From positions 9,116 to 73,115 of the forward strand of contig CAKZRD010000019.1 of assembly GCA_937143345.1 (NCBI GenBank): a stretch of DNA of 64,000 nucleotides, read 5' to 3'. The notes under the pieces are model-generated. The model was not told the DNA's origin. It did not search any database and worked only from the letters and a program-made list of their open reading frames with translations. Origin of the DNA: an uncultured archaeon. Lineage in GTDB: Archaea; Nanobdellota; Nanobdellia; Pacearchaeales; GW2011-AR1. A program made the position numbers and the translations under genes. Positions 21,192-53,496 of the stretch are shown here, piece by piece (positions within the stretch are counted from its first letter, which is position 1; every line of letters begins with the position of its first letter).

Positions 21192-21479
21192 ATGATAAAC
21201 TGGATTTTAATAATAATTGCTTTTTTAATAGTGCTTTCTTTTTTGAAAGTTGAACATTTTACAAGAATTTTTATTTTTATTTTATTATTATCTTTATTTT
21301 TATTTTTATTTTTTTCTTTTAATAAAATGATTAAAAGAGGCGAAATTTCTTTTGATTCTCCTCGTTCAACTTTAAATGCGTTTATAACTTATGGAAGATA
21401 CATTGAAAACGAGACAAAAAATATATTCAATACAACAAAAAAAGGAATAAATTTTGTTGGTGATGTTATAAGAGGTTAG
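21192..21479 (+). CDS. Small hypothetical membrane protein
   Basis: 95 aa with two predicted TM helices. No motif. Confidence 0.25.
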   Translation: MINWILIIIAFLIVLSFLKVEHFTRIFIFILLLSLFLFLFFSFNKMIKRGEISFDSPRSTLNAFITYGRYIENETKNIFNTTKKGINFVGDVIRG

Positions 21480-22003
21480 GATTTTATTTTCATTCCGATA
21501 GATATTTTGCCAAGTTCGCAAAAATTATAAACATATTCTTGGCTGTCTTTTATTTTCTTACAAATAGAAACATAGGAAGAGTATTCCATTTGTTGGGTTT
21601 GTTCTGGATTTTCATAAACCTTATAATAATTACATCCTAAAGAAGGGCATTCTTTCAATGTTGAAAAATTTCCTCCTATCTTAAAAATCCTTATCGAAGA
21701 TATAGGCCAAAATTCTGAATAAAGTTGATTTATTTCTTCTATCTTCATCACAAAAATTTTATCTTCATCAATACAAAAAGAGCTTCTTTCAGAACAAGAG
21801 AACTCCGGCAATTGGGAAAAAGATTCTAAAATGTTTAAAACTTGTTCTCTTTCTCTTTCTTGCGCGCTTGTCCTCATTTCTCCTAAAAAAACCTGTAAAA
21901 GAAAAAGCCCGACTAATGTAAAAAAGAAAAAAACTGCTAATATCATAAATGCCATTTGTTGAATTCTCATCTGAGATTTTTTCATTCCGACCATAGTTTG
22001 CAT
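21476..22003 (-). CDS. Small pilin-like/hypothetical protein with N-terminal hydrophobic helix
   Basis: MKKSQ-MRIQQMAFMILAVFFFF: a K/R-rich head then a hydrophobic helix. Last gene of the large minus-strand module. Confidence 0.35.
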   Translation of the reverse strand: MQTMVGMKKSQMRIQQMAFMILAVFFFFTLVGLFLLQVFLGEMRTSAQEREREQVLNILESFSQLPEFSCSERSSFCIDEDKIFVMKIEEINQLYSEFWPISSIRIFKIGGNFSTLKECPSLGCNYYKVYENPEQTQQMEYSSYVSICKKIKDSQEYVYNFCELGKISIGMKIKS

Positions 22004-22929
22004 TGTGTTCTCTCCTCCAATTCTTTTAATAGTTTAGAGATAGAATAAATTTCATCTATGTTTTTTGAATTAAAACATACATTTCTTAGTTCAATTAAAG
22101 TATCTTCTAAATTCGTAGGGCAATTTCTTGAAGACATTCTTTCTGATTTTTCTTTATAAATTAAAGAAAGAACTCCTGCTTTGTAAAGAATTCTTTTTAA
22201 GTTGCATTCATAAATTTCTTTATCTGAAAAAATTGCCGGATACAAAAAGTTTCCGACATAATCAATCCTTTCTCCTTCTTTTATGACAAAACCTTTTTCA
22301 TATTTGTCATCACACCATGATTCTATGCAATCACTTATTATTGTAATATCGCATTTGGTACCATAATTAAAACAAACCTTTATTGAATTTTTAGTACAAT
22401 TATCTTCTCCGAAAATTGCTTTATCTCCTAAAACTGAAATATGTGTTTTGAAAGAAGGAAGGTCCTCATAACCTTCAAGAAAACAAAACTCTCTCGAATC
22501 AATAATTAAAACATCTGTTACTTTGAAGCCGAAATTTATCGGAATGGAAAAAAAATAAAACTTTTTAGAAGGTTCTTTTGAAAAATAAATATATTTGTCC
22601 TTTATCGTTATTTCCTCTCCCAATATATTAAAATCCTCGTTTAAACCTCTTATTTGTTTTGCTGAAAGTTTTTGATAGCCGAAATTTGACGAATCACAGA
22701 AAGAGTCAAAAACAATCTCTCTTTTTGAAGATAATACTCCTTTTGAAGAAGATACGAAACCTGCTTGCATTGGGTCTAAAAAAACAGAAACTTGTTTTGT
22801 TAATTCTGTATCTTGATAAAATTTTATTGTTGTTCCTGTTCTTACTGCAGCATAAATCATTAAAACGAGAATTGCACTTCCTGCTAAAATTGCAAAAAGC
22901 CAAACAAAATTAAAATCTCCTTTTTTCAT
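21982..22929 (-). CDS. Pilin-like protein (class III signal peptide-like N-terminus)
   Basis: MKKG-DFNFVWLFAILAGSAILVLMIYAAV. 315 aa with a Cys-containing globular part. Confidence 0.4.
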   Translation of the reverse strand: MKKGDFNFVWLFAILAGSAILVLMIYAAVRTGTTIKFYQDTELTKQVSVFLDPMQAGFVSSSKGVLSSKREIVFDSFCDSSNFGYQKLSAKQIRGLNEDFNILGEEITIKDKYIYFSKEPSKKFYFFSIPINFGFKVTDVLIIDSREFCFLEGYEDLPSFKTHISVLGDKAIFGEDNCTKNSIKVCFNYGTKCDITIISDCIESWCDDKYEKGFVIKEGERIDYVGNFLYPAIFSDKEIYECNLKRILYKAGVLSLIYKEKSERMSSRNCPTNLEDTLIELRNVCFNSKNIDEIYSISKLLKELEERTQCKLWSE

Positions 22930-22958
22930 AAAGCTTAAAACAAAATATCTTATTTAAA

Positions 22959-23456
22959 TTATTCTATGATTACAAATTTATCATAAATTCTTTTTGTAAA
23001 CTTTAAGTTTTCTTCTGCATAAACGCAATAAGGGTTCTTTGATTTAATTATTTCATCTATTTTAATGCGATTTATTTTTTTATAAGGGATATTACAAGCA
23101 GAATTGTATGGTATCAAAAAAACATTAGCATCTTCAAATTCAAAATCTGCAATTTCTTCATAATCTTCTCTATTTGTTATTGTTGAAGATAAATTCGCAA
23201 AACAAACTTTTTCTATTTCTGAAGGAAGATTTATTTTAAACTCTTTATTCTCAACAGAAGAAGCATAAAAAACCTTATCAACTTCCCTTTGCAAAGAATC
23301 ATAAAAATTGCCTATTTGAGTGCATTTGCTTATTTTAAAAAATTGTCTTATTCCGAAAAAAGTAGCTCCTATAAAAATAATTATGAGGAAAATCGCGAAT
23401 ATAACTCCAAAGGACATACCCATCGGGCCTTCTTGTCCTTTTTTGTTTTTTTCCAT
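22959..23456 (-). CDS. Pilin-like protein (class III signal peptide-like N-terminus)
   Basis: MEKNKKG-QEGPMGMSFGVIFAIFLIIIFIGA. 165 aa. Confidence 0.4.
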   Translation of the reverse strand: MEKNKKGQEGPMGMSFGVIFAIFLIIIFIGATFFGIRQFFKISKCTQIGNFYDSLQREVDKVFYASSVENKEFKINLPSEIEKVCFANLSSTITNREDYEEIADFEFEDANVFLIPYNSACNIPYKKINRIKIDEIIKSKNPYCVYAEENLKFTKRIYDKFVIIE

Positions 23457-23566
23457 TTTTATGAAAAGAACTAAGAGTTTAAAAGAGTTTTTATCCTTCG
23501 GTGTAAGTTTTTTATAAAGAAATTATCTTCACTTCAAAAGGTCTCATTTGCTGATTGAAATTTAAC

Positions 23567-26500
23567 TTAAAATAAGAAGTTTTTCCTCGGTCTAACTATT
23601 AAAGAACAACCTATTGGCTCATTTCTAAATTCGTCTCTGCATTTTATATAATAGGTTTTTTCATTATCCCAAGCAGTAACATGGACAGGAGAATTTGAGT
23701 ATGGCATCAACGTTCCTTCCTCGAATAAATAATCACAACTTTCTGTTGAATAAACACAATCAGATCTTCTGAATGTGACTATTTTTAAATAATCATCTTC
23801 ATGATAAGCTCTTGCAATAACAGGGGAAAAGGTATCTATTTCAAGTTCAAATTGTGCTTCCGCTTCCGCCAAATTTCCTCCTCCGTCAATGCATTTAATA
23901 TAATATTTATGAACTCCGCTGAAAAGATCTAATCTTTGCTTGCTTACTCCATCTGCTTTGTTTGTGTCAAAGAAAGGAACAAAACTCTTTTGCTCTCCTG
24001 TAAAAGAATAGAAACAAGTAGCTTTGTTGTTGTCGCAACCGAAGAGAGTTTCAACAGTTAAATTAACTGGCATCGGAGAAATTCCTCCATATATCGTTAT
24101 GTTGTTTGGAGAAATTGACTTAATTTTTAAATGGTTTGAACCACGAACTTTATAATTGAATGAATTTGCCATTGTATTTCTTTCTTTTTCTGGCATTCCG
24201 GGATTGTCTTTGCATTTTATGTAGTAATCTGTGCCGTCTCTTTTTACTCCTGTCAGATTCGCCCTGCAAGTATATAATAACAATGAATTTATTTCAAAAA
24301 CATGTTGTGTGCAAGACATATTGTAAGTCATTTGTTCAAAAGTTCTGTCATTAAAATCCCATTTACATTCTGCAGGCTCATCTGTGTAAAACTCAACTAA
24401 TGAGTGATTTTGATCAGCTGTGACACAACTTCCGCTTTCAACAGAAACTGCTTTGATTTGTGGTGGTGTATTGTCTGGCTCATCATCTACACAAAACCTA
24501 ACAGAATAAGGAACAGTGTTTAGATTTCCTTTTGCATCTCTACACATTAAATAAAGAGTCATTTCTTTTCCCATTTCCAAAGTTAAAGAAGAATTTTTAA
24601 GATCTTTTGCTCTTGGAACATGAAGAATTTCTGTGAAATTTTTTCTGTAAGTGTTGTCTCCTCCCATAAAAGAAAGCATTTCTTCAAAAGAATTTTTCTT
24701 TTCTAAATCTATTTTGCATTGTGCTGGTTCGTTTGTTGTTACGCCAAATTGTATTGGTGAGAATGCTTTAATACATGCATTTAGTCCTTCTGTTCTTATT
24801 ATTTTAAAGCCAGGTCCTGGAGGAGAAGTCCTGACATCTGTGTATGTATAACCTTCTGTTAAAACTTCTTTCCATGGAGTAATTACTGGTGGGGAAACCT
24901 CTCTTGTGCTGTTATCAACACAAATTCCTCCTTTTTCTCCTTGACTAATAAAAGCACATGTTTGACCTAGAGATTTACAACGATATTCTGAACAAGGCAA
25001 TTGGTCGTGATTACACAACTCACAATCCTCTCCTCCGTGTGGCGCTTGCCAAGGAAGACATTTAAACTCTACTCGCTCTTCGAACTTTTCTGTTTTTTCA
25101 TAATTCTTAACATAATGATACCAGGCCACACCGACACCTATAGCTATTGGAACAAATTTTTCATAGAAACCTGCCCCTAATTTTTCACCAAAACTAAAAA
25201 ATTTATTTTTTGCTGCCAATTGAGCTAAACTTTTTTCTTCATTGGCAGATCCAAACCATTTAGCAGTCATAATTCCCCTCATAGTATTAAAAGAGGTAAC
25301 TCCGAAAAAAATTGCTTTTTTTATTGTCTCAACTTGCCCTTCATCTGTTCCAGCCATTTGTGCAACAAACCCTGCGAATTCTGAAACTACTTTTCCCCAT
25401 AAAAGACCTTCTGCTAAATGATAAACTGGCCAAAAAAAACTTTGGTTCTGGGTTATATTCCATCCCAATCCTGGAATTCTTCTTGGGGGATGATCGCCGG
25501 GAGGAAGGGTGGGTTCTACTTCTCTTCCGCCTACGCTACTCACCGCAGTTGGTGCTCCTGATGGTCCACTATTATGTACAAGCACTCCCTCGGCAAAAAA
25601 CCACTTTCCGCCCAAATCCAAATCATAAACATCTATTGGCTCATCTAAGACAACTTTCTCAATACTCTCAATAAAAACCTTCTCAGAATTTATTCCTTGT
25701 AAATAATCTCCGACAACCGCGTTCCCGATAGGTTGCCATTTTCCATTCAACAAAACCTCGTGATTAGGAGTAATCTCTAAAATTTTATTAACAATCAAAT
25801 ACTCGGATTTCCAAGAAACAATAACATCTCGAACAATTTCTTTAGTCAATTTCCCTGTTTCAAAATCATAAGATAAAACTTCTTCTCCTGGTTTTATGGA
25901 GGAGATGGGTTTTGTTGATAAATCTGCGAGTGAAATACTACTACTTAAACAAGTTCCTGGCGACTTAACTTCCTGAGTTTTACCACCCAAAATATCCTTT
26001 AAATAACTAGTGTCTTGAACAAGATTACCTTCCACCAAACTAAAAACCTTATTTGGATTTCCATCGTCTCCAAGAGAGTATAATGCAATAATTTTCTTGT
26101 CACTCCCTATAGAAATCCTATTAATTCCCTGAGAAACTGCCTGTCTATATAAATCGTCCGAAAGCAAATCTAAAAAATTAGCTTCCTGAATAGTATATTC
26201 TGTCGCATTAACCATCCACATCCCACCAATCAAATAAGCAAAGCTAACAACTCCAAGAACCAACATTCCAATCTGCATAAAGCCCAATCCTTTTTTATTA
26301 ATCATTTCCCCTAGTCTCTCTCTCTCGAGATTTAAATTTAGTTCTTCAAGCATTTCATCAGTTAAATATGTTCCATCGGATAGATAAGGAAGAGAGATTT
26401 GAGTTTTGGGGGAAAGACAATTATCTTTTAATCTTTCAGTTCGTGGAATCTTTGAAGAACCATCTATCGATAAAGATTCATAACTAAAAGCTTTTCTATT

Positions 26501-26725
26501 AATATCTACCAAATCTGCTGATTCATAAAAATCAAAAAGCCCTGTTTGTTGATTATAAAATGCTAAATAAACCTTATCTCCAATAATTACATCACCATGA
26601 TAACTTAACATCGATTCTTTTTCATTCGTACTCCCAATTCTAATAAACCAAACCATCGCAACAACAGACAAAACCAACATTAAAACAGAACTTACAGAAA
26701 AAATCTTCGCTATTTTGGTTTTCAT
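23567..26725 (-). CDS. Giant polytopic Cys-rich surface protein with an embedded Hint (intein-like) domain
   Basis: 1052 aa with an N-terminal TM and additional hydrophobic segments. The Hint domain begins CLSSSISLADL and ends VLVHN|S. The C-terminal part is clearly paralogous to the C-terminal half of the 1360 aa protein (shared ...PCSEYRCKSLG...TPWKEVLTEGY... and repeated YYI[KR]C.D..GN modules). Confidence 0.6.
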   Translation of the reverse strand: MKTKIAKIFSVSSVLMLVLSVVAMVWFIRIGSTNEKESMLSYHGDVIIGDKVYLAFYNQQTGLFDFYESADLVDINRKAFSYESLSIDGSSKIPRTERLKDNCLSPKTQISLPYLSDGTYLTDEMLEELNLNLERERLGEMINKKGLGFMQIGMLVLGVVSFAYLIGGMWMVNATEYTIQEANFLDLLSDDLYRQAVSQGINRISIGSDKKIIALYSLGDDGNPNKVFSLVEGNLVQDTSYLKDILGGKTQEVKSPGTCLSSSISLADLSTKPISSIKPGEEVLSYDFETGKLTKEIVRDVIVSWKSEYLIVNKILEITPNHEVLLNGKWQPIGNAVVGDYLQGINSEKVFIESIEKVVLDEPIDVYDLDLGGKWFFAEGVLVHNSGPSGAPTAVSSVGGREVEPTLPPGDHPPRRIPGLGWNITQNQSFFWPVYHLAEGLLWGKVVSEFAGFVAQMAGTDEGQVETIKKAIFFGVTSFNTMRGIMTAKWFGSANEEKSLAQLAAKNKFFSFGEKLGAGFYEKFVPIAIGVGVAWYHYVKNYEKTEKFEERVEFKCLPWQAPHGGEDCELCNHDQLPCSEYRCKSLGQTCAFISQGEKGGICVDNSTREVSPPVITPWKEVLTEGYTYTDVRTSPPGPGFKIIRTEGLNACIKAFSPIQFGVTTNEPAQCKIDLEKKNSFEEMLSFMGGDNTYRKNFTEILHVPRAKDLKNSSLTLEMGKEMTLYLMCRDAKGNLNTVPYSVRFCVDDEPDNTPPQIKAVSVESGSCVTADQNHSLVEFYTDEPAECKWDFNDRTFEQMTYNMSCTQHVFEINSLLLYTCRANLTGVKRDGTDYYIKCKDNPGMPEKERNTMANSFNYKVRGSNHLKIKSISPNNITIYGGISPMPVNLTVETLFGCDNNKATCFYSFTGEQKSFVPFFDTNKADGVSKQRLDLFSGVHKYYIKCIDGGGNLAEAEAQFELEIDTFSPVIARAYHEDDYLKIVTFRRSDCVYSTESCDYLFEEGTLMPYSNSPVHVTAWDNEKTYYIKCRDEFRNEPIGCSLIVRPRKNFLF

Positions 26726-26901
26726 TTCTTCACCTCTTTAATTATTTGTTTTAATAAAGGAACTTTTTTAATTAACAACCGTGATTTATGAAAATTCGCC
26801 ATCTGATAATAAAATAAATCCTTATTCATATTAAACCTTAGAGCTTGTTTTTTTATTTTTTAATAGTAGAATAATTATTTCGAATGTTATGTTCTTTCTA
26901 G

Positions 26902-29211
26902 TCATCTTTTCTCCTCTACAATAAATTTAATTCCTGTTCCATAATCTCCGAGTGAAAGCCCTTTTTTTGAACTCCCGCCAGAAACAATTCGTTCTGGAAG
27001 ATCTTTTCCAGAAATTTTTTCCCATAGTTTTTGAGAGAAAGATTTTTCTTCTTTTATTTTTTCGTATTTAATTTCTTGAGGAAAACTTAATTTTTCAACT
27101 TTGACCTCTTCCCCATCCCTAGCAATGATTAAATCACCTTTTTTTAATTCCTCTATTTGTTTTAAAGAATATTTTTCTTCGTTTTTTAGCAGAACAAAAC
27201 TTCCTTTATTTATTTCTATTTTATCATTGATTAAAATTTTGTTTTTATTTTCCTTTATAACGAAAGCTGTTCCTCTTTTAGCGTGGCCTTGGTTTATTCC
27301 ACCTAATAAACTAAATGAAGAATTTTTATATTTCCAAGAATATCCATCGTCGGTATATTTGTCATTTATATTTACATTTGCCCCGCAATCTCCGATAGAT
27401 GTACAAATCGCATTTACTTTTTTAGCCCAATCTGCTTTAGGTATAAGCGAATATTCTTTTGAATTTCCAGAGGGTGCTTTTCCGCCTTCCCATTCTAAAC
27501 ACTCGCTTTCAATCTCTATTCCGCTTTCATTAATCATCTTGAAATTATACTCTTTATCTCCAAAAGGTCCAGCTAAACTTTCGTATTTTTCAGTTCTTAA
27601 TATTGTCACCTTACAAACAGCACTTGCTATCTCGCAATTCCCTTGTCCAAGCCAAAATTTATTACCTGGGGGGATTAAAGGAACACAAATTCCTCCCTCG
27701 TCTTCCTCGCTTTTATTGAATTTTGTAACTTTGTTTAAAATATCATAATCAAATTCCCAAATTCCTTTTCCGCTTGAAACAAAAGGTGCTAAAGCATTTG
27801 TTGTTATAACTTTTCCTGCCGACATGGAACCGAAAGCACTGGATGCTTGTTGTGCTAAACCTATTCCTTGCATTGCGTTATCAAAACCTGATTGTTTGCT
27901 TGTTGGATTTTGAAATTGCGAAAAAGAATTTGAAAAAGAAGATTGCTGTTTATTCCAATTTAATCCCTCTACATCATCAATCCAAATACAATCTCTTACA
28001 TCTATATTTTCACAATCTCTCTTTCTCCATTGCTGAACACAATCTTGCCATCTATTTACTCTACAGGCAGCAGTTGAAAATTCTCCAGAAGAAGTTTGGA
28101 TTCCTGAATGTATGCAAATTTGGTTTCTAAAATCAGCACAAGGGTCACTAACGACTTCCCCGTCTATACAAATTTGTCTAAAATGCCTTGAACCAGCTTT
28201 TTCATAGCCCTTTCCTGGCTCTATATCATAAACACACCAGCTCTCACCATTTATTCTTGTTTTTCCACTCATGTCTTTACAGGTTGTTCTTTTACAAATA
28301 AATTCTCCTTCTTTCCCTAGATTTGTTTTCTTCCCATCTTTGCTTGAACAAATACTTCCTAAAAGATAATCACAATTTCCGCAAGAAGTACTTCCGTCAT
28401 TACGAGGACAAATAGTATCTGGGTCTGCAACTCTACCTTTATTCCAGGACTTATCTTTGTTTGAAGAATAAACATTCTCCCTGTTCCCGCAAGAGTCAAA
28501 CCAATAAACTTTTCCTTTGTAGCAACCAACATAATTTTGTCTGGCACATTCTGTATTTAATTCTTCAGCAGAACAAAGAACATTTTTATAAAATTTTTTT
28601 CCTGTTTCTTGCTCTAAAATTGATTTGTTTACATTTAAAGCGATAACTCCATCTCTTGCTCCGCAATCTTTTCTCGTCGTAAATTTACACTCATTAACTC
28701 CTGTTCCTGTATAGGTAACACAAGCCCCCATATCTTGCCCGTTGGCTAAAAAAATACATTCTGATTCGTCAGTTACAGATGTCTTAAACTCCATCGTTAT
28801 TCCAAAGTATGTTGAAAGTTTTTTACATCTTGCTAAAGTAACTAAAGCAGCTTGGTCTGAAATTAAACAACAACCTAGACGACAAGTTGGAAGTTCTGAA
28901 GCAGATTTCTCACTCCAAGTTCCGTTTCTTTCTTGACAGATTTTTTGTGGAACATTTTCCATACAAATTCCTTCCTTTGTGTCATAACAAGTTCCCGTTT
29001 TACAGAAAGAGGTCTGCGCACAAGAAGAAGGAGCTATTCTGAAAGAAGAATCACATTCATTTTCTTGCGCGTTTAAACAAAATCCTCCACTTTTTGTTTT
29101 CTCGCAACAAAAGGAAGGAACAGAAATTATTGCAGAAGAAAAACTAATAAAAAAAAATAAAAATAATAAAAATATTGTTTTATTCATGGATATTCTCCTG
29201 CTGCTGGCCAA
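26902..29211 (-). CDS. Secreted Cys-rich protein
   Basis: 769 aa with a signal peptide. Paralogous to the N-terminal half of the 1360 aa protein: shared CCxxTKxGxxC, GCC motifs, CGNCDY..GSICS, GESWCVYD, GSRHF. Confidence 0.6.
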   Translation of the reverse strand: MASSRRISMNKTIFLLFLFFFISFSSAIISVPSFCCEKTKSGGFCLNAQENECDSSFRIAPSSCAQTSFCKTGTCYDTKEGICMENVPQKICQERNGTWSEKSASELPTCRLGCCLISDQAALVTLARCKKLSTYFGITMEFKTSVTDESECIFLANGQDMGACVTYTGTGVNECKFTTRKDCGARDGVIALNVNKSILEQETGKKFYKNVLCSAEELNTECARQNYVGCYKGKVYWFDSCGNRENVYSSNKDKSWNKGRVADPDTICPRNDGSTSCGNCDYLLGSICSSKDGKKTNLGKEGEFICKRTTCKDMSGKTRINGESWCVYDIEPGKGYEKAGSRHFRQICIDGEVVSDPCADFRNQICIHSGIQTSSGEFSTAACRVNRWQDCVQQWRKRDCENIDVRDCIWIDDVEGLNWNKQQSSFSNSFSQFQNPTSKQSGFDNAMQGIGLAQQASSAFGSMSAGKVITTNALAPFVSSGKGIWEFDYDILNKVTKFNKSEEDEGGICVPLIPPGNKFWLGQGNCEIASAVCKVTILRTEKYESLAGPFGDKEYNFKMINESGIEIESECLEWEGGKAPSGNSKEYSLIPKADWAKKVNAICTSIGDCGANVNINDKYTDDGYSWKYKNSSFSLLGGINQGHAKRGTAFVIKENKNKILINDKIEINKGSFVLLKNEEKYSLKQIEELKKGDLIIARDGEEVKVEKLSFPQEIKYEKIKEEKSFSQKLWEKISGKDLPERIVSGGSSKKGLSLGDYGTGIKFIVEEKR

Positions 29212-29951
29212 GGATAGCTCCTCACAGCGAAGTTAAATTTAATTTTCTCATTTTTTTCTATGACTGAATAAACCTTAACTTCATTATCTGTTCTTGTCTT
29301 TAAAATTTTTATGTTTGGATAAAAAAACATTTGTTGCATTTGTTCGCTATCTCCGTAATATGTTTCAAATTGAATTAAAGACGTTGCTATCATCAAAACT
29401 TCGTAAAGATTTGTTTTGAAATTATAACTTAAGTTTTTAATTGAGGAAGAAGATTCTCCGTGTGAAATTTTTGCTGGAGCGTTTATCTTAATTTTGATTT
29501 CTTTAGGTTCTATTGATACAGAATAAGAAATTTCTCCTTCTTCAACATCTATTCCTCTTCTTTTTAACTCACTTATAGATTTTTTATAACATTTTTCAAA
29601 ATCTTCTTTAATTAATTCTTTCAGTGATTCTTCAAACCTATCTTTTAAAAAAGGTTCTTGATTAACGCAAGGTGTTAGATATTCGTTTGTGTAACATAAG
29701 AAAGTATAATTTTCTCCTTTATAAAAATGAACAAATTTTGGCTCTAAAAATCCTGCTGTTTGAGCAAGAGATTTTATTTTTTTAGAAAGGCTATCATCTA
29801 GACAGCTCTCAAAACTTCTACTAAAACCAAGCGGTAAAGTTAAACCTCTTATAAATTCTGGTTTAAAATAATAAAAAAGAAAAAAAATGCTGAAAATGAA
29901 GATTAACCCAAGTATTATAAATAAAGTAACTTGTCCCCTTTTATTCTCCAT
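29184..29951 (-). CDS. Small membrane-anchored protein with class III (pilin-like) signal peptide; paralog of 34065..34829
   Basis: MENKRG-QVTLFIILGLIFIF has Gln at +1 after K-R-G. 255 aa. Similar length, N-terminal motif and position to its paralog. Confidence 0.45.
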   Translation of the reverse strand: MENKRGQVTLFIILGLIFIFSIFFLFYYFKPEFIRGLTLPLGFSRSFESCLDDSLSKKIKSLAQTAGFLEPKFVHFYKGENYTFLCYTNEYLTPCVNQEPFLKDRFEESLKELIKEDFEKCYKKSISELKRRGIDVEEGEISYSVSIEPKEIKIKINAPAKISHGESSSSIKNLSYNFKTNLYEVLMIATSLIQFETYYGDSEQMQQMFFYPNIKILKTRTDNEVKVYSVIEKNEKIKFNFAVRSYPWPAAGEYP

Positions 29952-29985
29952 TTTTTTAAAAAGAAAATTAGGTTTATAAATTCTT

Positions 29986-32900
29986 TTATAAATTAATAGG
30001 TTTAATTATTGCTGAGCATTGATTTAAAATGTTTAGTTTTTTGTCTCTGCATCTTATATAATAAGTTTCATAAGGATATGCTGTAAAGTTATGTGATCTT
30101 GATAAGTATTTTATTTCACTCGGAAGTTCATAGTTACAAAGAGTTGTTTTGTTTGTATTATAAAAGCATTCTGCTTCCTCGTCTGTTTCTAAAGAAAGTT
30201 TTCCATCTTTGTATAAAGCTCTTTGTATTAAAGGAGGAGTTTCATCAAAGAATACTGAAAAGTTAAAAGTTTCTTCTGCAATATTTCTTGCTTCGTCTTC
30301 ACATTTTACATTGATTGAATAATTACCTTGTGGAAACGTGAGTAATTGATTATGTTCTGTTTTACCTGTTTCAAAGAAATTTATGAACGAAGAAGAAAAT
30401 CCGGGGACATTGTAAGAGCAAAATGCGTTTCCTATGCATCCGAAAGTTCTAACAGAAAGAGTGAAATTTTTTTCCTCTATTAAATTTTTTCTATTTAACA
30501 AAGAAATATTTAATCCATCTTTACAAACATTTAAAACATATTCTTTGCTTACAAAATTAATATTTCTTTTATAATATTCTGTTTCTTCTTTTAAATTTGG
30601 TTGGTCATTACATCTAAAATAAAAAGTGTTTTTCCCTTCTGTTAAATTATCAATCTTTGTAAAACAAGTCCATTCTCCGAGGAAAACGCTTTCTTGTGAA
30701 GTTAAACAAGTCATATTGTTAGACATATCATAGAAACCTTCATTTCCGCTAACTACATCATACTCTTTAACAAAACGGCATTCTGCTGGCTCGTTAAGAT
30801 AAAGAATTACGGATGTTGAATTTGTTCCTTTTTTCAAATAAATCCCATTTGGAGGATTAAATCTTCTTAATTCAGCAGGAGTTAGGTCTGGACCTTGTTT
30901 AACTTTAACTTGAACGACAAATTCTGCTTCATTAACTTGACCTGCAAAATTTAAACATCTTATATAATATTCATTTTCTTCTCCGATTGTTAAACCAAGA
31001 GTATTTTTAGATGCGTTTTTGTCTTTTAAAAAACCGGAAAGTGTTATTTTGTGAGTTAATCCATCAGATTTTCCTGTTTCTGGATTAATATCTGAAATCA
31101 TCTCGAATTTCATTTCATCATAGCTTTTTGTGTGTTCATAATCAATCCTACAAGTTGCTGGTTTGTCAGTTTTTATTCCGAAAGTTAAATCTCCCCAAGC
31201 TTCTATTCCTTCGCCGTTTTTTCCAGCAATTCTAAATCCACTATCTCTTACATTTATATAAGAGTAACCTTCTGTTAAAACTTCTTTCCAAGGAGTTATT
31301 TTTGCTTTCCATATCTCGCTTATAGAATAACAATATCCTGGTTCTCCTTTCTCAATAAAGTAATGACAATTGCTTCCCAGTGATTTACATCTGTATTCAG
31401 AGCAAGGTCGGACGTCGTCGTTGCAAATATCGCAGTTTCCATTTTTTGGTGGTTGCCATGCTTCGCATGAGAAAGACATTATGTAATATTCGTATTCATC
31501 AAAACTATCGTCAAAACAATTTTTATACACTGAAGTAGAGATAGCAGCAACGACGGCTACAGCACAGACAGGATTTATAAAACCAGTCGCCCCACAAATG
31601 GTGCCAGTCAACTTAAGAATAACAACGGTTGCTGAGACAAAAACAGTAGACATTGCGGCCATCAAACCCTCGATAAACTTCCTTTCTAGTCCAGGACTCC
31701 AATTTTGATTCTTAGCAATAAGCTTTCCAAGCTGATATCCAACATAAGACCCAATTATTGCTGTGGCTGCCAAGGTTAAACCAGCTTTTAAATTCATCAG
31801 CCAGTTTGGATTTGTAACAGTCGTACTAACTTTTCTAGTTAAACCTAAATATTTCTGAAGCCCATCTAAAAAGGTAGATCCTGTCTCAAAAAAAGGAACA
31901 GTGCTAGTAGTTGTGACGGAAGTTGTTGTTAGGGCCTTCCAACCACCCATCGCCAATCCTGCCATAGTTAATGGCCCAGCAAAATTAACAATTTCCTGCA
32001 AAGAACTAGAAGAGCTTCCAACACTCACGCCCTTAGAGAGTTCATTTAAATCTATAGTTGTCTTATTTATATCACCAGCAGTCCAGGCACTATCTGCAAT
32101 ATCCGCAGACAAACCGGAGGAGATAGATTTGAGATCATTTAATTTTTTAAAAGAAGCAATGGGTTTTTTAAAAGAAGCAATGTAATCTCCTGGAAGAGTA
32201 TAATTACTAATTGAAATATTCCTATTCTCCCCCTTCCTGTCTATCTTGATTCTTTGAACAGAGAAGCCCGGAAAATCTTCATTGACTTCTCCAATTATAT
32301 TTGAAGAAACACCACAACTTCCCAACGCCCTACATCGCTCATTCATTGCAGACATGAGATTAGGTAGATCTTTTGTCTTTATATTAACATTTGCTCCATC
32401 GATATTGCACTCCCAATTTGCTTCATCTTCCCATGGATCGCAGTCTACATCTTCTGGATTTATTAGTTCTGAGATCCCATAAGAATAAGCACAGAGTGTA
32501 GTACTTATCAATCCCTTCAATTGAAGATTGGTCTCATCGACCATCTGGCATTTTCTTTTTACACTAGATATGCAAGTAAAACTCCCCAAACTACAAATTG
32601 CATTTGTTTCTTCATTGCTTCCACCATAATTTGCTGTGGAGAATTGTTTTTGTTTTTGAGAAGGATTATAGGAATCTGAACCTCTTCCTACAATTTTAGT
32701 ATTGGTATTCCAAAATTGAAAACCTGGAGTAAATCTTGGAACACAATGAGCTAAAAGTTTATTTTGGTCTTTTCCTAAATCATCTATTGCACCTTGTTCT
32801 GCATTTGTTTTTTCTGGATCAAAACCTGCAAGAAATTTACCGTCACTTCTTTTTAATTTATCTTCACCATAAAATTCGTTAAACATAATGCATTGTGGGT

Positions 32901-34068
32901 TTTCTTCGCATTTCTTTTCAACTTCAGAATAAGACTCAGCATCATTTGCATTGAGACAACTTCTCCAATCGTTTATTAAGCATTTTGCCTCAGTGTAACC
33001 TGAATCAGTATTTTGAACACAGATTTCTTGCATGAAATCAGCACACCCCTCTATAGAAATTTGACCCTCGAAACAACGAGCAATAAAATGTCTAGAACCT
33101 ACCGGAGCAATTCCTTCTAACGGATTAAAGTCATAAACACACCAGCTTTCCCCGTGCTTTTTGTTGTTGCAATGCAAGCTTTTGCAAACATAATCTCCTA
33201 ACGAAGGTTTTTGCGTTTTTCCTTTCTCGTATTTTGCACAAATACTTCCTCTAACATAATCGCAATTTCCACACGACGGACTTTCAGGAGAACAAGATTC
33301 TTCTGGAGGAATTGGTTTTTCCCAATAGGTTTGATTGTTTGCTTTGGAAGAATCATAAATGTTTGCTACATTACCACAGGAATCAAGAAAATAAACTTGA
33401 TCTCTATCTTCGACACATGTTGTTTTATTAGTTGGTTTACATATTGTGTTTAATTCTTTTGATGTACATAAATAACCTGGTTTAAAATCTCCTGTTTTAC
33501 AATTTTTTTTTGAAGTATAAACGCAGTTTTTTTCTCCTGAAAAATCCCCTGAATCTGAAAGACACGCTCCTAACTCTTCTAAACCGATATATTTTTCACA
33601 ACTTTCCCCACTCGAAAAAGGAATAAATTTTTTTTCAAAATTATATTTATTCGAAAGAAGAGTACACTCTCTCGAATTAACTAAAGAAACTTGGTTTCCA
33701 AGGATACAACAACCTAATTGACATTGTGGAATGTTGCATGAAATATCATCGCTCCAATTCCCTCCATTTTCTAAACATTTTTGTTTTGGCGACCTTAAAG
33801 AGCAAGTTCCTGTAGAAGAAGAATAACAACAACCAAGTTTGCATTCACCTACTGAAGAGCATTTTGTGGCAAATAGGTTTTCCTTACACAAATCTGCTTG
33901 AAAAAAAGGAATATCTTGGCAAATGGCTCCTTCTTTTGTTTCTCTACAGCAGCCTTTGAATGAGTCGGTTTGTGCGGAAACTAATTCTCTTTCTGAAATT
34001 AAATAGGCAAAACTAAATATTGCTAAAATCAATATTAAAATTTCTAAAAAAGCAATTTTTTTTTTCAT
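29986..34068 (-). CDS. Giant (1360 aa) Cys-rich surface/membrane protein, fused version of the 769 aa + 1052 aa pair
   Basis: Signal peptide. N-terminal Cys-rich region paralogous to the 769 aa protein. Central multi-TM hydrophobic region. C-terminal repeated beta-rich modules ending YYIRC.D..N, paralogous to the 1052 aa protein. No Hint domain. Confidence 0.6.
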   Translation of the reverse strand: MKKKIAFLEILILILAIFSFAYLISERELVSAQTDSFKGCCRETKEGAICQDIPFFQADLCKENLFATKCSSVGECKLGCCYSSSTGTCSLRSPKQKCLENGGNWSDDISCNIPQCQLGCCILGNQVSLVNSRECTLLSNKYNFEKKFIPFSSGESCEKYIGLEELGACLSDSGDFSGEKNCVYTSKKNCKTGDFKPGYLCTSKELNTICKPTNKTTCVEDRDQVYFLDSCGNVANIYDSSKANNQTYWEKPIPPEESCSPESPSCGNCDYVRGSICAKYEKGKTQKPSLGDYVCKSLHCNNKKHGESWCVYDFNPLEGIAPVGSRHFIARCFEGQISIEGCADFMQEICVQNTDSGYTEAKCLINDWRSCLNANDAESYSEVEKKCEENPQCIMFNEFYGEDKLKRSDGKFLAGFDPEKTNAEQGAIDDLGKDQNKLLAHCVPRFTPGFQFWNTNTKIVGRGSDSYNPSQKQKQFSTANYGGSNEETNAICSLGSFTCISSVKRKCQMVDETNLQLKGLISTTLCAYSYGISELINPEDVDCDPWEDEANWECNIDGANVNIKTKDLPNLMSAMNERCRALGSCGVSSNIIGEVNEDFPGFSVQRIKIDRKGENRNISISNYTLPGDYIASFKKPIASFKKLNDLKSISSGLSADIADSAWTAGDINKTTIDLNELSKGVSVGSSSSSLQEIVNFAGPLTMAGLAMGGWKALTTTSVTTTSTVPFFETGSTFLDGLQKYLGLTRKVSTTVTNPNWLMNLKAGLTLAATAIIGSYVGYQLGKLIAKNQNWSPGLERKFIEGLMAAMSTVFVSATVVILKLTGTICGATGFINPVCAVAVVAAISTSVYKNCFDDSFDEYEYYIMSFSCEAWQPPKNGNCDICNDDVRPCSEYRCKSLGSNCHYFIEKGEPGYCYSISEIWKAKITPWKEVLTEGYSYINVRDSGFRIAGKNGEGIEAWGDLTFGIKTDKPATCRIDYEHTKSYDEMKFEMISDINPETGKSDGLTHKITLSGFLKDKNASKNTLGLTIGEENEYYIRCLNFAGQVNEAEFVVQVKVKQGPDLTPAELRRFNPPNGIYLKKGTNSTSVILYLNEPAECRFVKEYDVVSGNEGFYDMSNNMTCLTSQESVFLGEWTCFTKIDNLTEGKNTFYFRCNDQPNLKEETEYYKRNINFVSKEYVLNVCKDGLNISLLNRKNLIEEKNFTLSVRTFGCIGNAFCSYNVPGFSSSFINFFETGKTEHNQLLTFPQGNYSINVKCEDEARNIAEETFNFSVFFDETPPLIQRALYKDGKLSLETDEEAECFYNTNKTTLCNYELPSEIKYLSRSHNFTAYPYETYYIRCRDKKLNILNQCSAIIKPINL

Positions 34069-34829
34069 ATTCCTGCTGGCATCACACAGGTACGAATTGC
34101 AAATTTAATTTCTTTATTGTCTAAGGACTTTAAAGTATAAACTTTTGTTTGATCACCACCCCTAAATCTTTCAATTTTAACATTTCTGTTGAGAGCTTGC
34201 CATATCATAAAATCGAATTCACAAAATGAGCTTTCGTAATTATTTATTGCTTCAGCAGTTCTTAATAAATAAGGAAGAGAAGATTTAACTTTCCCATTTA
34301 AAGAAGAAACAGAAAAAGAAGTTTCTCCTTTAGATATTTTTATTTCTGATTTTAAGTTATAAGAAATTTGTTGTTCCTCGAATATTAATTCAAACAAAAA
34401 AGAATCGTATTCAAAAGAATATCCTTTATTTTCATAATCTTCTTTTAAAATTAAAATTGCCCTTGATAAATCTCTAGAAATTTTATTCTCCATTTTTTTT
34501 CTTATAGATTCAATAAAAAGCGGGGATTGTTGAACGCAAGGAAAATAAAATTCTGTCGAATAACAAGAAAAGGGAACTTTTTCTTCCTTGTATAAATAAA
34601 AAATCTTAAACTCTTCTAAAAATCTTTTTTCCTTAAAGAAGTCTTCTTCATTTTGTTTTATAGAGTTTTCAATACTTCTTTTTATTAATAAATTGGGATC
34701 AGAAGAAGGTCTTTTAAAAAAAGAAATATCTTTGTTAAACAAAAAAAGAAAAAGAATTAAACCAGAAATTAAAACACCTGAAACAATAAAAATTGAAATT
34801 TGTGCTCTTTTTTTAAAAAAAAATTTCAT
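34065..34829 (-). CDS. Small membrane-anchored protein with class III (pilin-like) signal peptide; paralog of 29184..29951
   Basis: MKFFFKKRA-QISIFIVSGVLISGLILFLFLF. 254 aa. 4-nt overlap with the downstream giant gene. Confidence 0.45.
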   Translation of the reverse strand: MKFFFKKRAQISIFIVSGVLISGLILFLFLFNKDISFFKRPSSDPNLLIKRSIENSIKQNEEDFFKEKRFLEEFKIFYLYKEEKVPFSCYSTEFYFPCVQQSPLFIESIRKKMENKISRDLSRAILILKEDYENKGYSFEYDSFLFELIFEEQQISYNLKSEIKISKGETSFSVSSLNGKVKSSLPYLLRTAEAINNYESSFCEFDFMIWQALNRNVKIERFRGGDQTKVYTLKSLDNKEIKFAIRTCVMPAGI

Positions 34830-53132: not shown

Positions 53133-53299
53133 AAATTTATTAAAAAAGTTAAGATAATAAACTAAAAGAATATCGGAATTTAAAAAATTTATAATCTCTC
53201 TTATTCGAAATTAAATCTTAAACAGCTAATTAATCTTGTAATCATCTAAAACAATTATACAAAATCTTTTTAATTGGGAAAATGTTTATTTAATAGTTT

Positions 53300-53382
53300 G
53301 CGGAGATGCCGGAGTGGTCAAACGGGTCGCGCTAAGGACGCGATGGCTTTTGCCTGCAGGGGTTCGAATCCTCTTCTCCGCA
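53300..53382 (+). tRNA. tRNA-Leu (type II, long variable arm); anticodon loop reads CUAAGGA (anticodon AAG by manual fold)
   Basis: Acceptor GCGGAGA/UCUCCGC + A73. Anticodon stem UCGCG/CGCGA. Variable arm GGC-UUUU-GCC. T-arm AGGGG-UUCGAAU-CCUCU. No encoded CCA. Confidence 0.75.
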
Positions 53383-53421
53383 TTAGAAACTTTTTTAATC
53401 TTTTTTTATTTTAGAATTTTA
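53383..53421 (+). terminator. T-rich tract between the two tRNAs (archaeal oligo-T termination signal)
   Basis: cttttttaatctttttttatttt immediately 3' of tRNA-Leu. Confidence 0.3.
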
Positions 53422-53496
53422 GCCCTGGTAGCTCAGTTTGGATAGAGCATCGCACTCCTAATGCGAGGGTCGGAGGTTCAAATCCTCCCCCGGGCG
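53422..53496 (+). tRNA. tRNA-Arg (anticodon CCU)
   Basis: D-arm GCUC/GAGC. Anticodon stem UCGCA/UGCGA with loop CUCCUAA. T-arm GGAGG-UUCAAAU-CCUCC. One U-C mismatch in the acceptor stem under my fold. Confidence 0.8.

Follow-up and report, generated by a model that had tools for sequence, protein, structure and literature searches.

Can a domain with the residues of a self-splicing intein reside in the variable part of a surface protein, and if so, how did it come to be there and what might it do? This question is raised by a gene for a protein of 1052 amino acids (aa) in a 64,000-nucleotide (nt) stretch of DNA, hereafter the window, from an uncultured archaeon of the Pacearchaeales lineage (contig CAKZRD010000019.1 of GenBank assembly GCA_937143345.1, positions 9,116 to 73,115). 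Inteins are commonly portrayed as selfish elements that reside in conserved housekeeping proteins, and bacterial intein-like (BIL) domains as bacterial autoprocessing modules of variable secreted proteins. A first-pass annotation of the window had noted an intein-like Hint domain in the 1052-aa protein and proposed that it is a recently acquired mobile element, marked by GC-rich DNA, in a non-conserved surface protein. The analysis described here points, with fair though incomplete confidence, to residues 259–385 being a compact Hint-fold autoprocessing module that combines mini-intein chemistry with a BIL-like location, that would excise itself from its host protein, and that is accessory and has passed among orthologous genes in lineages already diverged, recombination being the presumed route.

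Identity of the Hint domain

The gene and the parts of the domain discussed below are as follows.

23567..26725, minus strand: host gene (open reading frame, ORF), 1052 aa (P0001), C-part subunit of a split giant surface protein
25571..25951, minus strand: Hint domain, aa 259–385, 127 aa, with the fold taken from an AlphaFold2 model and Foldseek
25949..25951, minus strand: codon of the Hint residue Cys259
25760..25771, minus strand: Hint block B, TPNH, aa 319–322
25571..25630, minus strand: Hint block F/G, aa 366–385
25571..25576, minus strand: Hint residues His384-Asn385
25568..25570, minus strand: Ser386, the +1 residue, candidate C-extein nucleophile

The segment that runs from Cys-Leu (CLSSSISLADL...) to GVLVHN comprises exactly 127 residues, aa 259–385, and is followed by Ser386, in agreement with the first-pass annotation. 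The four intein blocks are all recognisable, namely A (Cys259-Leu), B (Thr319-Pro-Asn-His322) and F/G (aa 366–385, VYDLDLGGKWFFAEGVLVHN, with the pattern VYDLDLGG..GVLVHN), a resemblance that extends beyond the terminal residues. There is no insert between blocks B and F, and the 127-aa domain contains no homing endonuclease domain or relic of one; a homing endonuclease is not required for mini-inteins.

In Pfam, the window protein gave three matches to the Hint clan, all of them below the gathering scores: Intein_splicing (E 0.0014; 18.9 bits against 35.8), PT-HINT (E 0.0034; 18.1 against 27.7) and Vint (E 0.0055; 16.9 against 27). A sequence search of the PDB returned, with weak E-values, mainly Hint-fold chains (BIL2, a VWA-Vint protein, a C. 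thermocellum BIL, and the RadA, RecA and NrdJ-1 inteins). A profile of the domain, constructed with the orthologous copies included, matched 46,359 representative proteins at E<=1e-3, 703 of them at E<=1e-30, and ten of these relatives that were checked scored E 1e-13 to 1e-47 on curated Hint-clan models (PT-HINT or Hint), with PT-HINT as the top Pfam model for eight. The link of the window protein to the Hint clan is therefore transitive, since its own profile retrieves proteins that score strongly on Hint-clan models. Among the ten relatives checked, tandem Hints are frequent, and the proteins that carry them also have PKD or pilin-like parts.

An AlphaFold2 model of the Hint, built with 11 sequences, has a mean predicted local distance difference test (pLDDT) score of 75, with 73–95 in the core blocks. 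When this model was compared with the PDB by Foldseek, the best match was BIL2 of Tetrahymena BUBL1 (6TMM/6Y75, E 1e-8), followed by the bacterial intein-like domain of C. thermocellum (2LWY, E 3e-7) and then by ~40 mini-intein chains and Hedgehog Hog (E ~2e-4); every one of the 45 chains at E<=1e-3 is an intein, a BIL or a Hog domain. The Hint fold is a horseshoe-like beta structure with pseudo-two-fold symmetry. On the combined evidence of the model and the profile searches, aa 259–385 belong to the Hint superfamily, and this identity is regarded as secure. The name "Hint domain-containing protein" has already been given to two orthologs at NCBI. The 64-kb window contains only one Hint copy, and a profile search found none in the 1360-aa paralog of the host protein, as the first-pass annotation had stated.

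Catalytic residues and proposed action

The window copy contains the class-1 set of residues, comprising Cys259, Thr319-Pro-Asn-His322, the block-F Asp, His384-Asn385 and Ser386; fold and residue set together confirm the domain as a genuine Hint. Conservation of these residues was examined in a set of nine proteins, consisting of the window protein (P0001) and its relatives P0002–P0009 (~35–62% identity). TPNH and His-Asn are invariant in all nine proteins, and the Cys at position 1 (Cys1) is present in seven. Ser occupies the +1 position in seven of the eight non-redundant carriers, as well as in one further locus (L060), while only 12% of the following 25 residues are Ser. In a wider family of 422 Hints, C1, TxxH and HN are ~92–100% conserved where aligned, and the +1 residue is mostly Lys or Ala, which is the pattern of A-type BILs. 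Against this background, Ser+1 looks to be under selection in the present Hint lineage, and the simplest explanation of its retention would be a part in the transesterification step of class-1 splicing.

The following course of action is proposed. After export and folding, Cys259 would form a thioester with Thr258, helped by Thr319 and His322 of block B, and the acyl group would then pass to Ser386. Asn385, helped by His384, would cyclise, thereby freeing the ~14-kDa Hint; an O-to-N shift would follow, and the variable N-segment would end up joined to the Pro/Gly-rich linker, that is, protein splicing would have taken place. As in A-type BILs, N- or C-terminal cleavage would probably occur beside splicing or in its place. 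Roughly speaking, splicing is a plausible main outcome that we stop just short of calling probable, cleavage or transfer could be the main outcome with less confidence, and an inactive Hint would be unlikely.

The similarity to BIL domains raises the possibility, tentative as it is, that the Hint is a host-serving module of the BIL type, which would not splice but would cleave one or both junctions or pass its thioester-linked N-fragment on to another nucleophile; the variable N-terminal segment would thereby be released or re-attached in the maturation of the surface complex. BIL domains are the closest structures and sequence relatives of the window Hint, and the prevalence of Lys or Ala at +1 beside C1, TxxH and HN in the wider family fits such a module. 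A-type BILs keep the C-terminal His-Asn, lack the +1 nucleophile and mainly cleave (PMC4031507), and BIL2 of Tetrahymena moves its own N-flank onto lysines of other proteins (PMC8616854). In addition, the strong conservation of the Hint within a region that tolerates insertions and deletions suggests selection for a function, and HN is invariant even where Cys1 or Ser+1 has been lost. However, cleavage alone needs no Ser+1, which is kept well above the expectation from composition; 71 of 73 orthologs manage without a Hint, which is thus not required for the complex; and conservation is lacking in the N-fragment on which such a release or transfer would act.

Nucleophiles have been lost in two carriers whose domain is otherwise kept: P0003 has Ile both at position 1 and at +1, and P0008 has Tyr at position 1. 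In the window copy, the F-block histidine of distant relatives is replaced (GGKW). These features would fit a catalytically dead Hint fold that is retained for a structural or binding role in the stalk. Such a role is nonetheless rated quite improbable: Cys1, TPNH, the block-F Asp, His-Asn and Ser+1 are all present in the window copy and in most carriers, and the inactivation of P0003 looks recent, because its Hint is 87% identical to the intact Hint of P0002.

Distribution of the Hint among orthologs

The survey of orthologs was based on the conserved C-terminal domain (C-domain) of the host protein.

23570..25072, minus strand: conserved Cys-rich C-domain, probably Ig-like, aa 552–1052

A homolog search with a word index and the full-length protein as query had returned only Hint-bearing orthologs, since the Hint supplies the conserved words, which is a sampling bias; in each of the eight clusters of relatives obtained (P0002–P0009), the Hint is the best-conserved part of the protein and occupies an equivalent position. 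The C-domain alone was therefore used as query, and the best 80 species-level loci (39–75% identity) out of at least 504 species genomes were retained, all from metagenome-assembled genomes labelled Pacearchaeota, Woesearchaeota, Nanoarchaeota or unclassified archaeon. When both strands were searched within 6 kb, the Hint profile matched two of the 80 loci, namely L007, which is the genome of P0002, and L060, and 71 of the 73 orthologs with a complete N-terminal end lack the Hint. The view that the Hint is an ancient fixed domain of this family, which the full-length search would have suggested, was overturned by this result.

A host tree was constructed by neighbour-joining from the C-domains of 114 sequences (491 columns, rooted on paralogs, 100 bootstraps). 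The known carriers, ~10 in number, fall into four or five separate branches of this tree. Group A (the window protein, P0002/L007, P0003 and P0004) joins the Hint-less L009 with 96% support, group B (P0007 and L060) joins the Hint-less L008 and L010 with 96%, and group C (P0006) joins six Hint-less loci with 100%; in group D, P0008 and P0009 are each nearer to Hint-less loci (58–60% identity) than to each other (54%). Monophyly of all carriers was obtained in none of the 100 bootstrap replicates. These observations suggest that the Hint is an accessory module that was absent from the ancestral protein.

A scan of metagenomes with Hint-specific patterns revealed one further close copy, L090, which is identical to group B (it matches L060); the other Hints found in that scan show <=47% identity over short segments and no more than 40% across the whole domain. 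A search for a viral vector of spread gave only three viral Hints, at 28–30% identity, and no close copy. The best non-orthologous Hint in a representative library is 43% identical, as compared with 64–70% for copies in orthologous genes, which argues that all carriers share one Hint lineage. So far, this lineage appears to be confined to the present host gene family.

Exchange between lineages or vertical descent

The Hint does not follow its hosts in sequence divergence. Pairwise identity among the Hints is flat, at 62–87% and mostly 66–72%, whereas that among the host C-domains ranges from 36 to 75%, and the correlation between the two is not significant (Spearman 0.22). The window Hint is 71% identical to that of P0008, although the hosts share only 38%, and 69% identical to that of P0002, where the hosts share 75%. 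The borders of the conserved segment are sharp: mean identity is ~10% in the 30 aa before Cys1, ~70% inside the Hint (57–93% per 10-aa block) and 13–22% in 10-aa blocks from residue 389 onward.

Third-base identity at identical amino acids was compared with the saturation value calculated from the codon usage of each gene. The C-domains of distant pairs are saturated at synonymous third positions (z -0.5 to 0.8), whereas several Hint pairs are not (P0006-P0008, z = 4.4; P0006-P0007, 3.5; P0008-P0009, 3.3; P0007-P0008, 3.2). The window Hint shows a consistent but weak synonymous excess with respect to all partners (z 1.3–2.2). Since the carriers are polyphyletic and the synonymous sites of the Hint are unsaturated where those of the C-domains are saturated, the favoured interpretation is that the DNA encoding the Hint was exchanged among orthologous genes once the lineages had diverged, and as there is no endonuclease, the vehicle of exchange would be recombination. 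Repeated loss from a plastic region is a possible contributor. The add-on, mobile behaviour proposed in the first-pass annotation is thus borne out by the absence of the Hint from most orthologs, the polyphyly of its carriers and the synonymous similarity kept between them.

An ancestral Hint that descended vertically and was lost many times from a plastic stalk, with no horizontal movement, would also produce a patchy distribution. The stalk varies from ~170 to 950 aa among orthologs, and deletions are therefore evidently tolerated; ~60 invariant positions could hold the identity of the Hint at a plateau of ~70%; and neither an endonuclease nor another mobility gene nor a close viral copy (<=30% identity) accompanies the domain. 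This scenario, however, needs many independent losses to account for four or five presences, and it leaves unexplained both the independence of Hint identity from host identity and the unsaturated synonymous sites of Hints whose distant hosts have saturated C-domains. It is accordingly considered unlikely.

Several points weigh against the interpretation of the domain as an exchanged, self-excising module. With no homing endonuclease and no conserved extein junction, classical homing is unavailable and an "empty site" cannot be defined. The flat identity of ~70% among the Hints could in part be a plateau set by constraint, and the patchiness could have arisen from many losses in the plastic region. 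The synonymous excess rests on ~80 sites per pair with gene-wide codon usage as the null, and for the window Hint it is weak in each pair; the trees are neighbour-joining trees only. As to activity, the loss of nucleophiles in P0003 and P0008 would fit either recent decay or a non-catalytic role, and the nearest structures to the modelled fold are those of BILs, in which cleavage dominates. Finally, the extracellular location of the Hint is deduced from signal-peptide-like patterns, and the topology could differ in the fused long form found in the window.

The GC-rich linker

The Hint is directly followed by a linker.

25460..25570, minus strand: Pro/Gly/Ala/Arg-rich linker, aa 386–422, 37 residues, 111 nt

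The GC-rich segment described in the first-pass annotation corresponds to this linker, which, with a GC content of 0.57, belongs to the part of the window richest in GC, and not to the Hint itself, whose GC content (0.346) equals that of the whole gene (0.351) and reaches 0.47 only in the last ~17 codons. The GC content of the window as a whole is 0.29. The highest value for any 111-nt segment of the 64 kb is 0.577, at 25484, and segments of this length with GC >= 0.5 occur only in the linker stretch (25426..25622) and at 53271..53387, where a gene for tRNA-Leu is located. The tRNA-Leu(aag) gene occupies 53299..53383, and a gene for tRNA-Arg(cct) adjoins it at 53422..53496.

The GC contents of the linker at the first, second and third codon positions (GC1, GC2 and GC3) are 0.68, 0.73 and 0.30, respectively, as compared with 0.44, 0.37 and 0.24 for the gene. 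The value predicted for the linker from its amino acid composition and the gene's own codon usage is 0.54. Because the excess is restricted to codon positions 1 and 2 and matches this prediction, it is an effect of amino acid composition: the GC-rich DNA is the code for a Pro/Gly/Ala/Arg-rich linker, and the GC signal is uninformative about origin. Linkers of a similar kind, rich in P, S, T, A and G, are also present in Hint-less orthologs.

These results bear on the earlier proposal that the element is foreign and was acquired recently, with GC-rich DNA as its mark. The Hint does adjoin the stretch of highest GC content in the window; the excess of this stretch, however, is compositional, linkers rich in P, S, T, A and G are also present where there is no Hint, and the Hint shares the GC content of its gene and has a native GC3. 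Moreover, the window Hint is 66–71% identical to the Hints of the other carriers, that is, ~30% diverged from every copy, and it is common to lineages whose host domains share only 36–75% identity. Neither the foreign origin nor the recency of the acquisition was supported, and this explanation is regarded as highly improbable.

An ORF of 120 aa on the opposite strand (25312..25674, plus strand) overlaps the linker and the end of the Hint, antisense to the conserved gene, and is probably a by-product of the GC-rich, stop-poor stretch.

Comparison with known Hint systems

BIL domains are located in variable, non-conserved regions of their hosts (PMC5874633), and A-type BILs provide the best structural matches to the window Hint (2LWY; BUBL1 BIL2, 6TMM/6Y75), with which they share the N-terminal Cys, the TxxH of block B and the C-terminal His-Asn. 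Like the window Hint, they lie in a variable region of a secreted or surface protein and are better conserved than their flanks, and the sequence neighbourhood of the window Hint consists of multi-Hint, PKD- and pilin-like proteins. The window Hint differs from A-type BILs in its +1 Ser, its archaeal (DPANN) host and its occurrence as a single rather than a tandem copy, and the solved BILs are only 23–24% identical to it.

With class-1 mini-inteins (Ssp DnaB, 1MI8; Pho RadA, 4E2U; gp41-1, 6QAZ), the window Hint shares the whole set of Cys1, TxxH, Asp(F), His-Asn and Ser+1, together with sharp borders of conservation, sporadic presence among orthologs and signs of horizontal spread, within 127 aa. 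It is situated, however, in a hypervariable linker instead of the conserved site of a housekeeping protein, and it has no alignable intein-free allele, endonuclease relic or F-block His. PT-HINT (PF07591) of polymorphic toxins is found just before a C-terminal toxin, which PT-HINT releases. It likewise occurs in secreted multidomain proteins, and the window protein matches it weakly in Pfam; the window Hint, by contrast, lies close to the N-terminus, and what comes after it is a linker, an amphipathic region and then the conserved structural domain of 500 aa shared with the paralog, and no toxin-domain or immunity families were matched in the window proteins scanned. The Hog domain lacks a C-terminal Asn step and uses a sterol-recognition region. 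Hedgehog/Hog (1AT0, 6TYY) resembles the window Hint in its fold, its extracellular-pathway setting and the Cys thioester at the N-junction, whereas the window Hint possesses His-Asn and Ser+1 and is followed by no sterol-recognition region.

As expected for an intein, the domain is an in-frame insertion that homologs lack (71 of 73 complete orthologs and the paralog). It does not occupy a conserved site from which its removal would restore collinearity: its flanks are 5–20% identical among carriers and cannot be aligned with Hint-less orthologs or with the 1360-aa paralog, which aligns only to aa 552–1046. As the Hint region has no counterpart in the paralog, a comparison of collinearity between the two is impossible. 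With respect to the characteristics of A-type BILs, the variable region and the His-Asn are found, while a +1 nucleophile is present and the host is not bacterial. By its sequence, the domain is a putative class-1 mini-intein; by context and nearest relatives it is BIL-like, and within the continuum of inteins and BILs it is a clean member of neither family.

The Hint superfamily is well described, and automated annotation already flags the domain in two orthologs; the present finding extends the superfamily. What is new is the combination of intein chemistry, a BIL-like context, an archaeal episymbiont as host and an associated motif resembling an N-fragment. The domain unites class-1 intein residues and a patchy, exchanged distribution with a BIL-like home in the stalk of a DPANN surface protein, with no endonuclease. 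In the literature, no paper was found on Hint or BIL domains in DPANN surface proteins; a combined search for "Hint domain" and "DPANN" gave only a paper on neighbouring inteins in a haloarchaeal MCM helicase. If active, the domain would be among the smallest natural self-excising Hints (127 aa), in a low-GC genome, and a possible scaffold for protein engineering; its activity would further imply post-export remodelling of a cell-surface protein by episymbiotic archaea. The carriers, the non-carriers and the two carriers that have lost nucleophiles constitute a comparative system in which to ask whether a Hint is selfish or useful.

An upstream motif resembling an N-intein fragment

Upstream of the Hint, the window protein has an N-terminal extension that ends in a short motif, and the neighbouring 769-aa gene encodes a Hint-like fragment.

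26300..26725, minus strand: N-terminal extension, aa 1–142
26327..26419, minus strand: block-A mimic, short N-intein-like motif, aa 103–133, CLSPKTQISLPYLSDGTYLTDEMLEELNLNL
L002 9573..10004, L003 9480..10004, L005 556..~940: small upstream ORF or in-frame N-extension
27082..27246, minus strand: Hint-like 55-aa fragment, aa 656–710, in the tail (26905..27303) of the 769-aa gene

The extension is a separate small ORF in L002 and L003, with a 4-nt overlap with the Hint gene, and an in-frame fusion in the window and in P0008. A strong ribosome-binding site, GAGGTGA, is located 5 nt ahead of its ATG (26725), and the extension begins with a signal-like helix of its own. The motif, C-L-x-[PS]-x-T-x-I-x-x-P-Y-L-x-x-G-x-Y-L-x-D-E-x-L-x-x-L-N, stands at the end of the extension or small ORF, mimics the first ~30 residues of the Hint and is conserved in the window, L002, L003 and L005; the motif part of a hidden Markov model (HMM) of the extension matches in Hint-bearing loci only. 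In P0008, where Cys1 of the Hint is Tyr, the upstream motif retains its Cys. A recent DNA duplication of Hint block A was ruled out as the source of the motif, as only 14–19 of 33 nt are identical.

The fragment in the tail of the 769-aa protein aligns to block B and the following hairpins of the Hint, with NKGS in place of TPNH (Hint HMM, E 0.011; ortholog, E 0.0094; hhalign probability 94%, E 1.3e-7, 51 columns). The tail with this fragment also occurs in Hint-less loci, sometimes as a separate ORF of ~135–145 aa.

Short engineered N-intein (IN) peptides can act in trans, even with partners from other inteins (PMC3443213). It is conceivable, if very improbable, that the motif and the Hint form a natural trans pair, in which the short N-fragment would compete with or replace the first strand of the Hint, so that alternative N-segments would be ligated or a thioester handed between chains; together with the tail fragment of the 769-aa protein, Hint pieces would then join the halves of the split giant protein. 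The small protein that ends in the motif may be membrane-anchored in such an arrangement, which, if true, would amount to alternative splicing or ligation at the protein level on the surface of an episymbiotic archaeon. The motif occupies the place of the N-intein fragment in atypical split inteins (engineered Ssp DnaX/DnaB IN, 11–12 aa; PMC3443213), resembles the first ~30 residues of the Hint, and ends, or once ended, a separate small protein. Here, however, the downstream Hint is complete and leaves no vacant slot, and because the motif repeats no more than block A and ~20 residues beyond it, the two do not conform to the definition of a split intein. An AlphaFold2 model of aa 95–391 has a mean pLDDT of 58, with values below 50 for the motif and the first strand of the Hint, and is uninformative on docking.

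Host protein and operon

The remaining features of the host protein and its neighbourhood are listed below.

25073..25459, minus strand: amphipathic/hydrophobic region (GHLxEGLxWA...), aa 423–551, kept in Hint-bearing and Hint-less orthologs
25952..26197, minus strand: hypervariable N-flank, the would-be N-extein, aa 177–258
26204..26305, minus strand: internal signal-peptide-like segment, MINKKG...SFAYLIGGMWMVNA, aa 141–174, from alignment and hydropathy
26902..29211, minus strand: upstream 769-aa gene, N-part subunit
29986..34068, minus strand: unsplit 1360-aa paralog, no Hint
21476..34829, minus strand: operon of secreted or pilin-like proteins, also in L001–L006

Residues 552–1046 of the 1052-aa protein align to aa 864–1357 of the 1360-aa paralog (33% identity, E 7e-63), and the 769-aa protein is homologous to aa 40–372 of the same paralog (32% identity, E 6e-56). 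As both halves align to one 1360-aa protein, the 769-aa and 1052-aa proteins represent a split giant protein, and the Hint falls in a portion of the C-half to which nothing in the paralog corresponds. The region before the C-domain ranges from ~170 to 950 aa among orthologs. It measures 600–950 aa in 11 of 73 species (L016, L021, L027, L041, L044–L048, L062 and L072), where the second giant paralog is probably unsplit; the 769/1052 split would then be a feature of a lineage and not universal.

The N-flank has a mean pairwise identity of 5–10% among carriers and cannot be aligned among orthologs. In Hint-less orthologs, the distance from the signal peptide to the GHLxEGLxWA stretch is ~50–400 aa of unrelated sequence. 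The C-terminal 500 aa, on the other hand, are conserved in at least 504 species genomes, so that the "non-conserved surface protein" of the first-pass annotation applies to the Hint-bearing stalk and not to the protein as a whole; what does hold is the expectation that this location, a part of a surface protein with little conservation, is unusual for an archaeal intein. The comparisons among orthologs indicate that the Hint, downstream of the signal-peptide-like segment, occupies a hypervariable cassette region of the stalk in an otherwise conserved surface protein. A weak hydropathy scan flagged no membrane-spanning segment in aa 423–551. The segment at aa 141–174 corresponds to the N-terminus in seven of nine orthologs, and its pattern recurs in Hint-less orthologs; signal cleavage is predicted after VNA, VSA or VSG.

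The operon in the window encodes two ~255-aa proteins with KRGQ-type class III-like signals, the 1360-aa giant, the 769-aa and 1052-aa proteins, and then proteins of 165, 315 and 175 aa. The operon is conserved in Pacearchaeota-type DPANN archaea, and six related loci (L001–L006) keep the gene order: a ~255-aa protein, a giant of ~1220–1390 aa, a second ~255-aa protein, an N-part of ~520–775 aa, the Hint-bearing C-part and three small proteins (~165, ~315 and ~170 aa). The N-termini of the operon proteins have a K/R-rich start, a hydrophobic run of ~20 residues and sites of the V-S-A or V-N-G type, and they look like Sec signal peptides or pilin-like signals. An NCBIfam scan of the three large proteins matched no family, and a Pfam scan of the small operon proteins gave no significant match. 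No pilus ATPase is located beside the operon, the flanking genes being those for PCNA, a DAC-domain protein and a primase.

In the window, the N-part gene is separated from the C-part gene by a short gap (26726..26901, 176 nt) that has no insert. The equivalent gap is a recurrent site of toxin–antitoxin insertions: in five of the six related loci, it holds nucleotidyltransferase genes, with HEPN/HepT partners in four and an added ParE in one.

L002 7710..9591, L003 8317..9483, L004 9386..10004, L005 2..566, L006 9307..10004: gap insertions

In L002, the insertion gave rise to a second copy of the initial 70 aa of the upstream small ORF.

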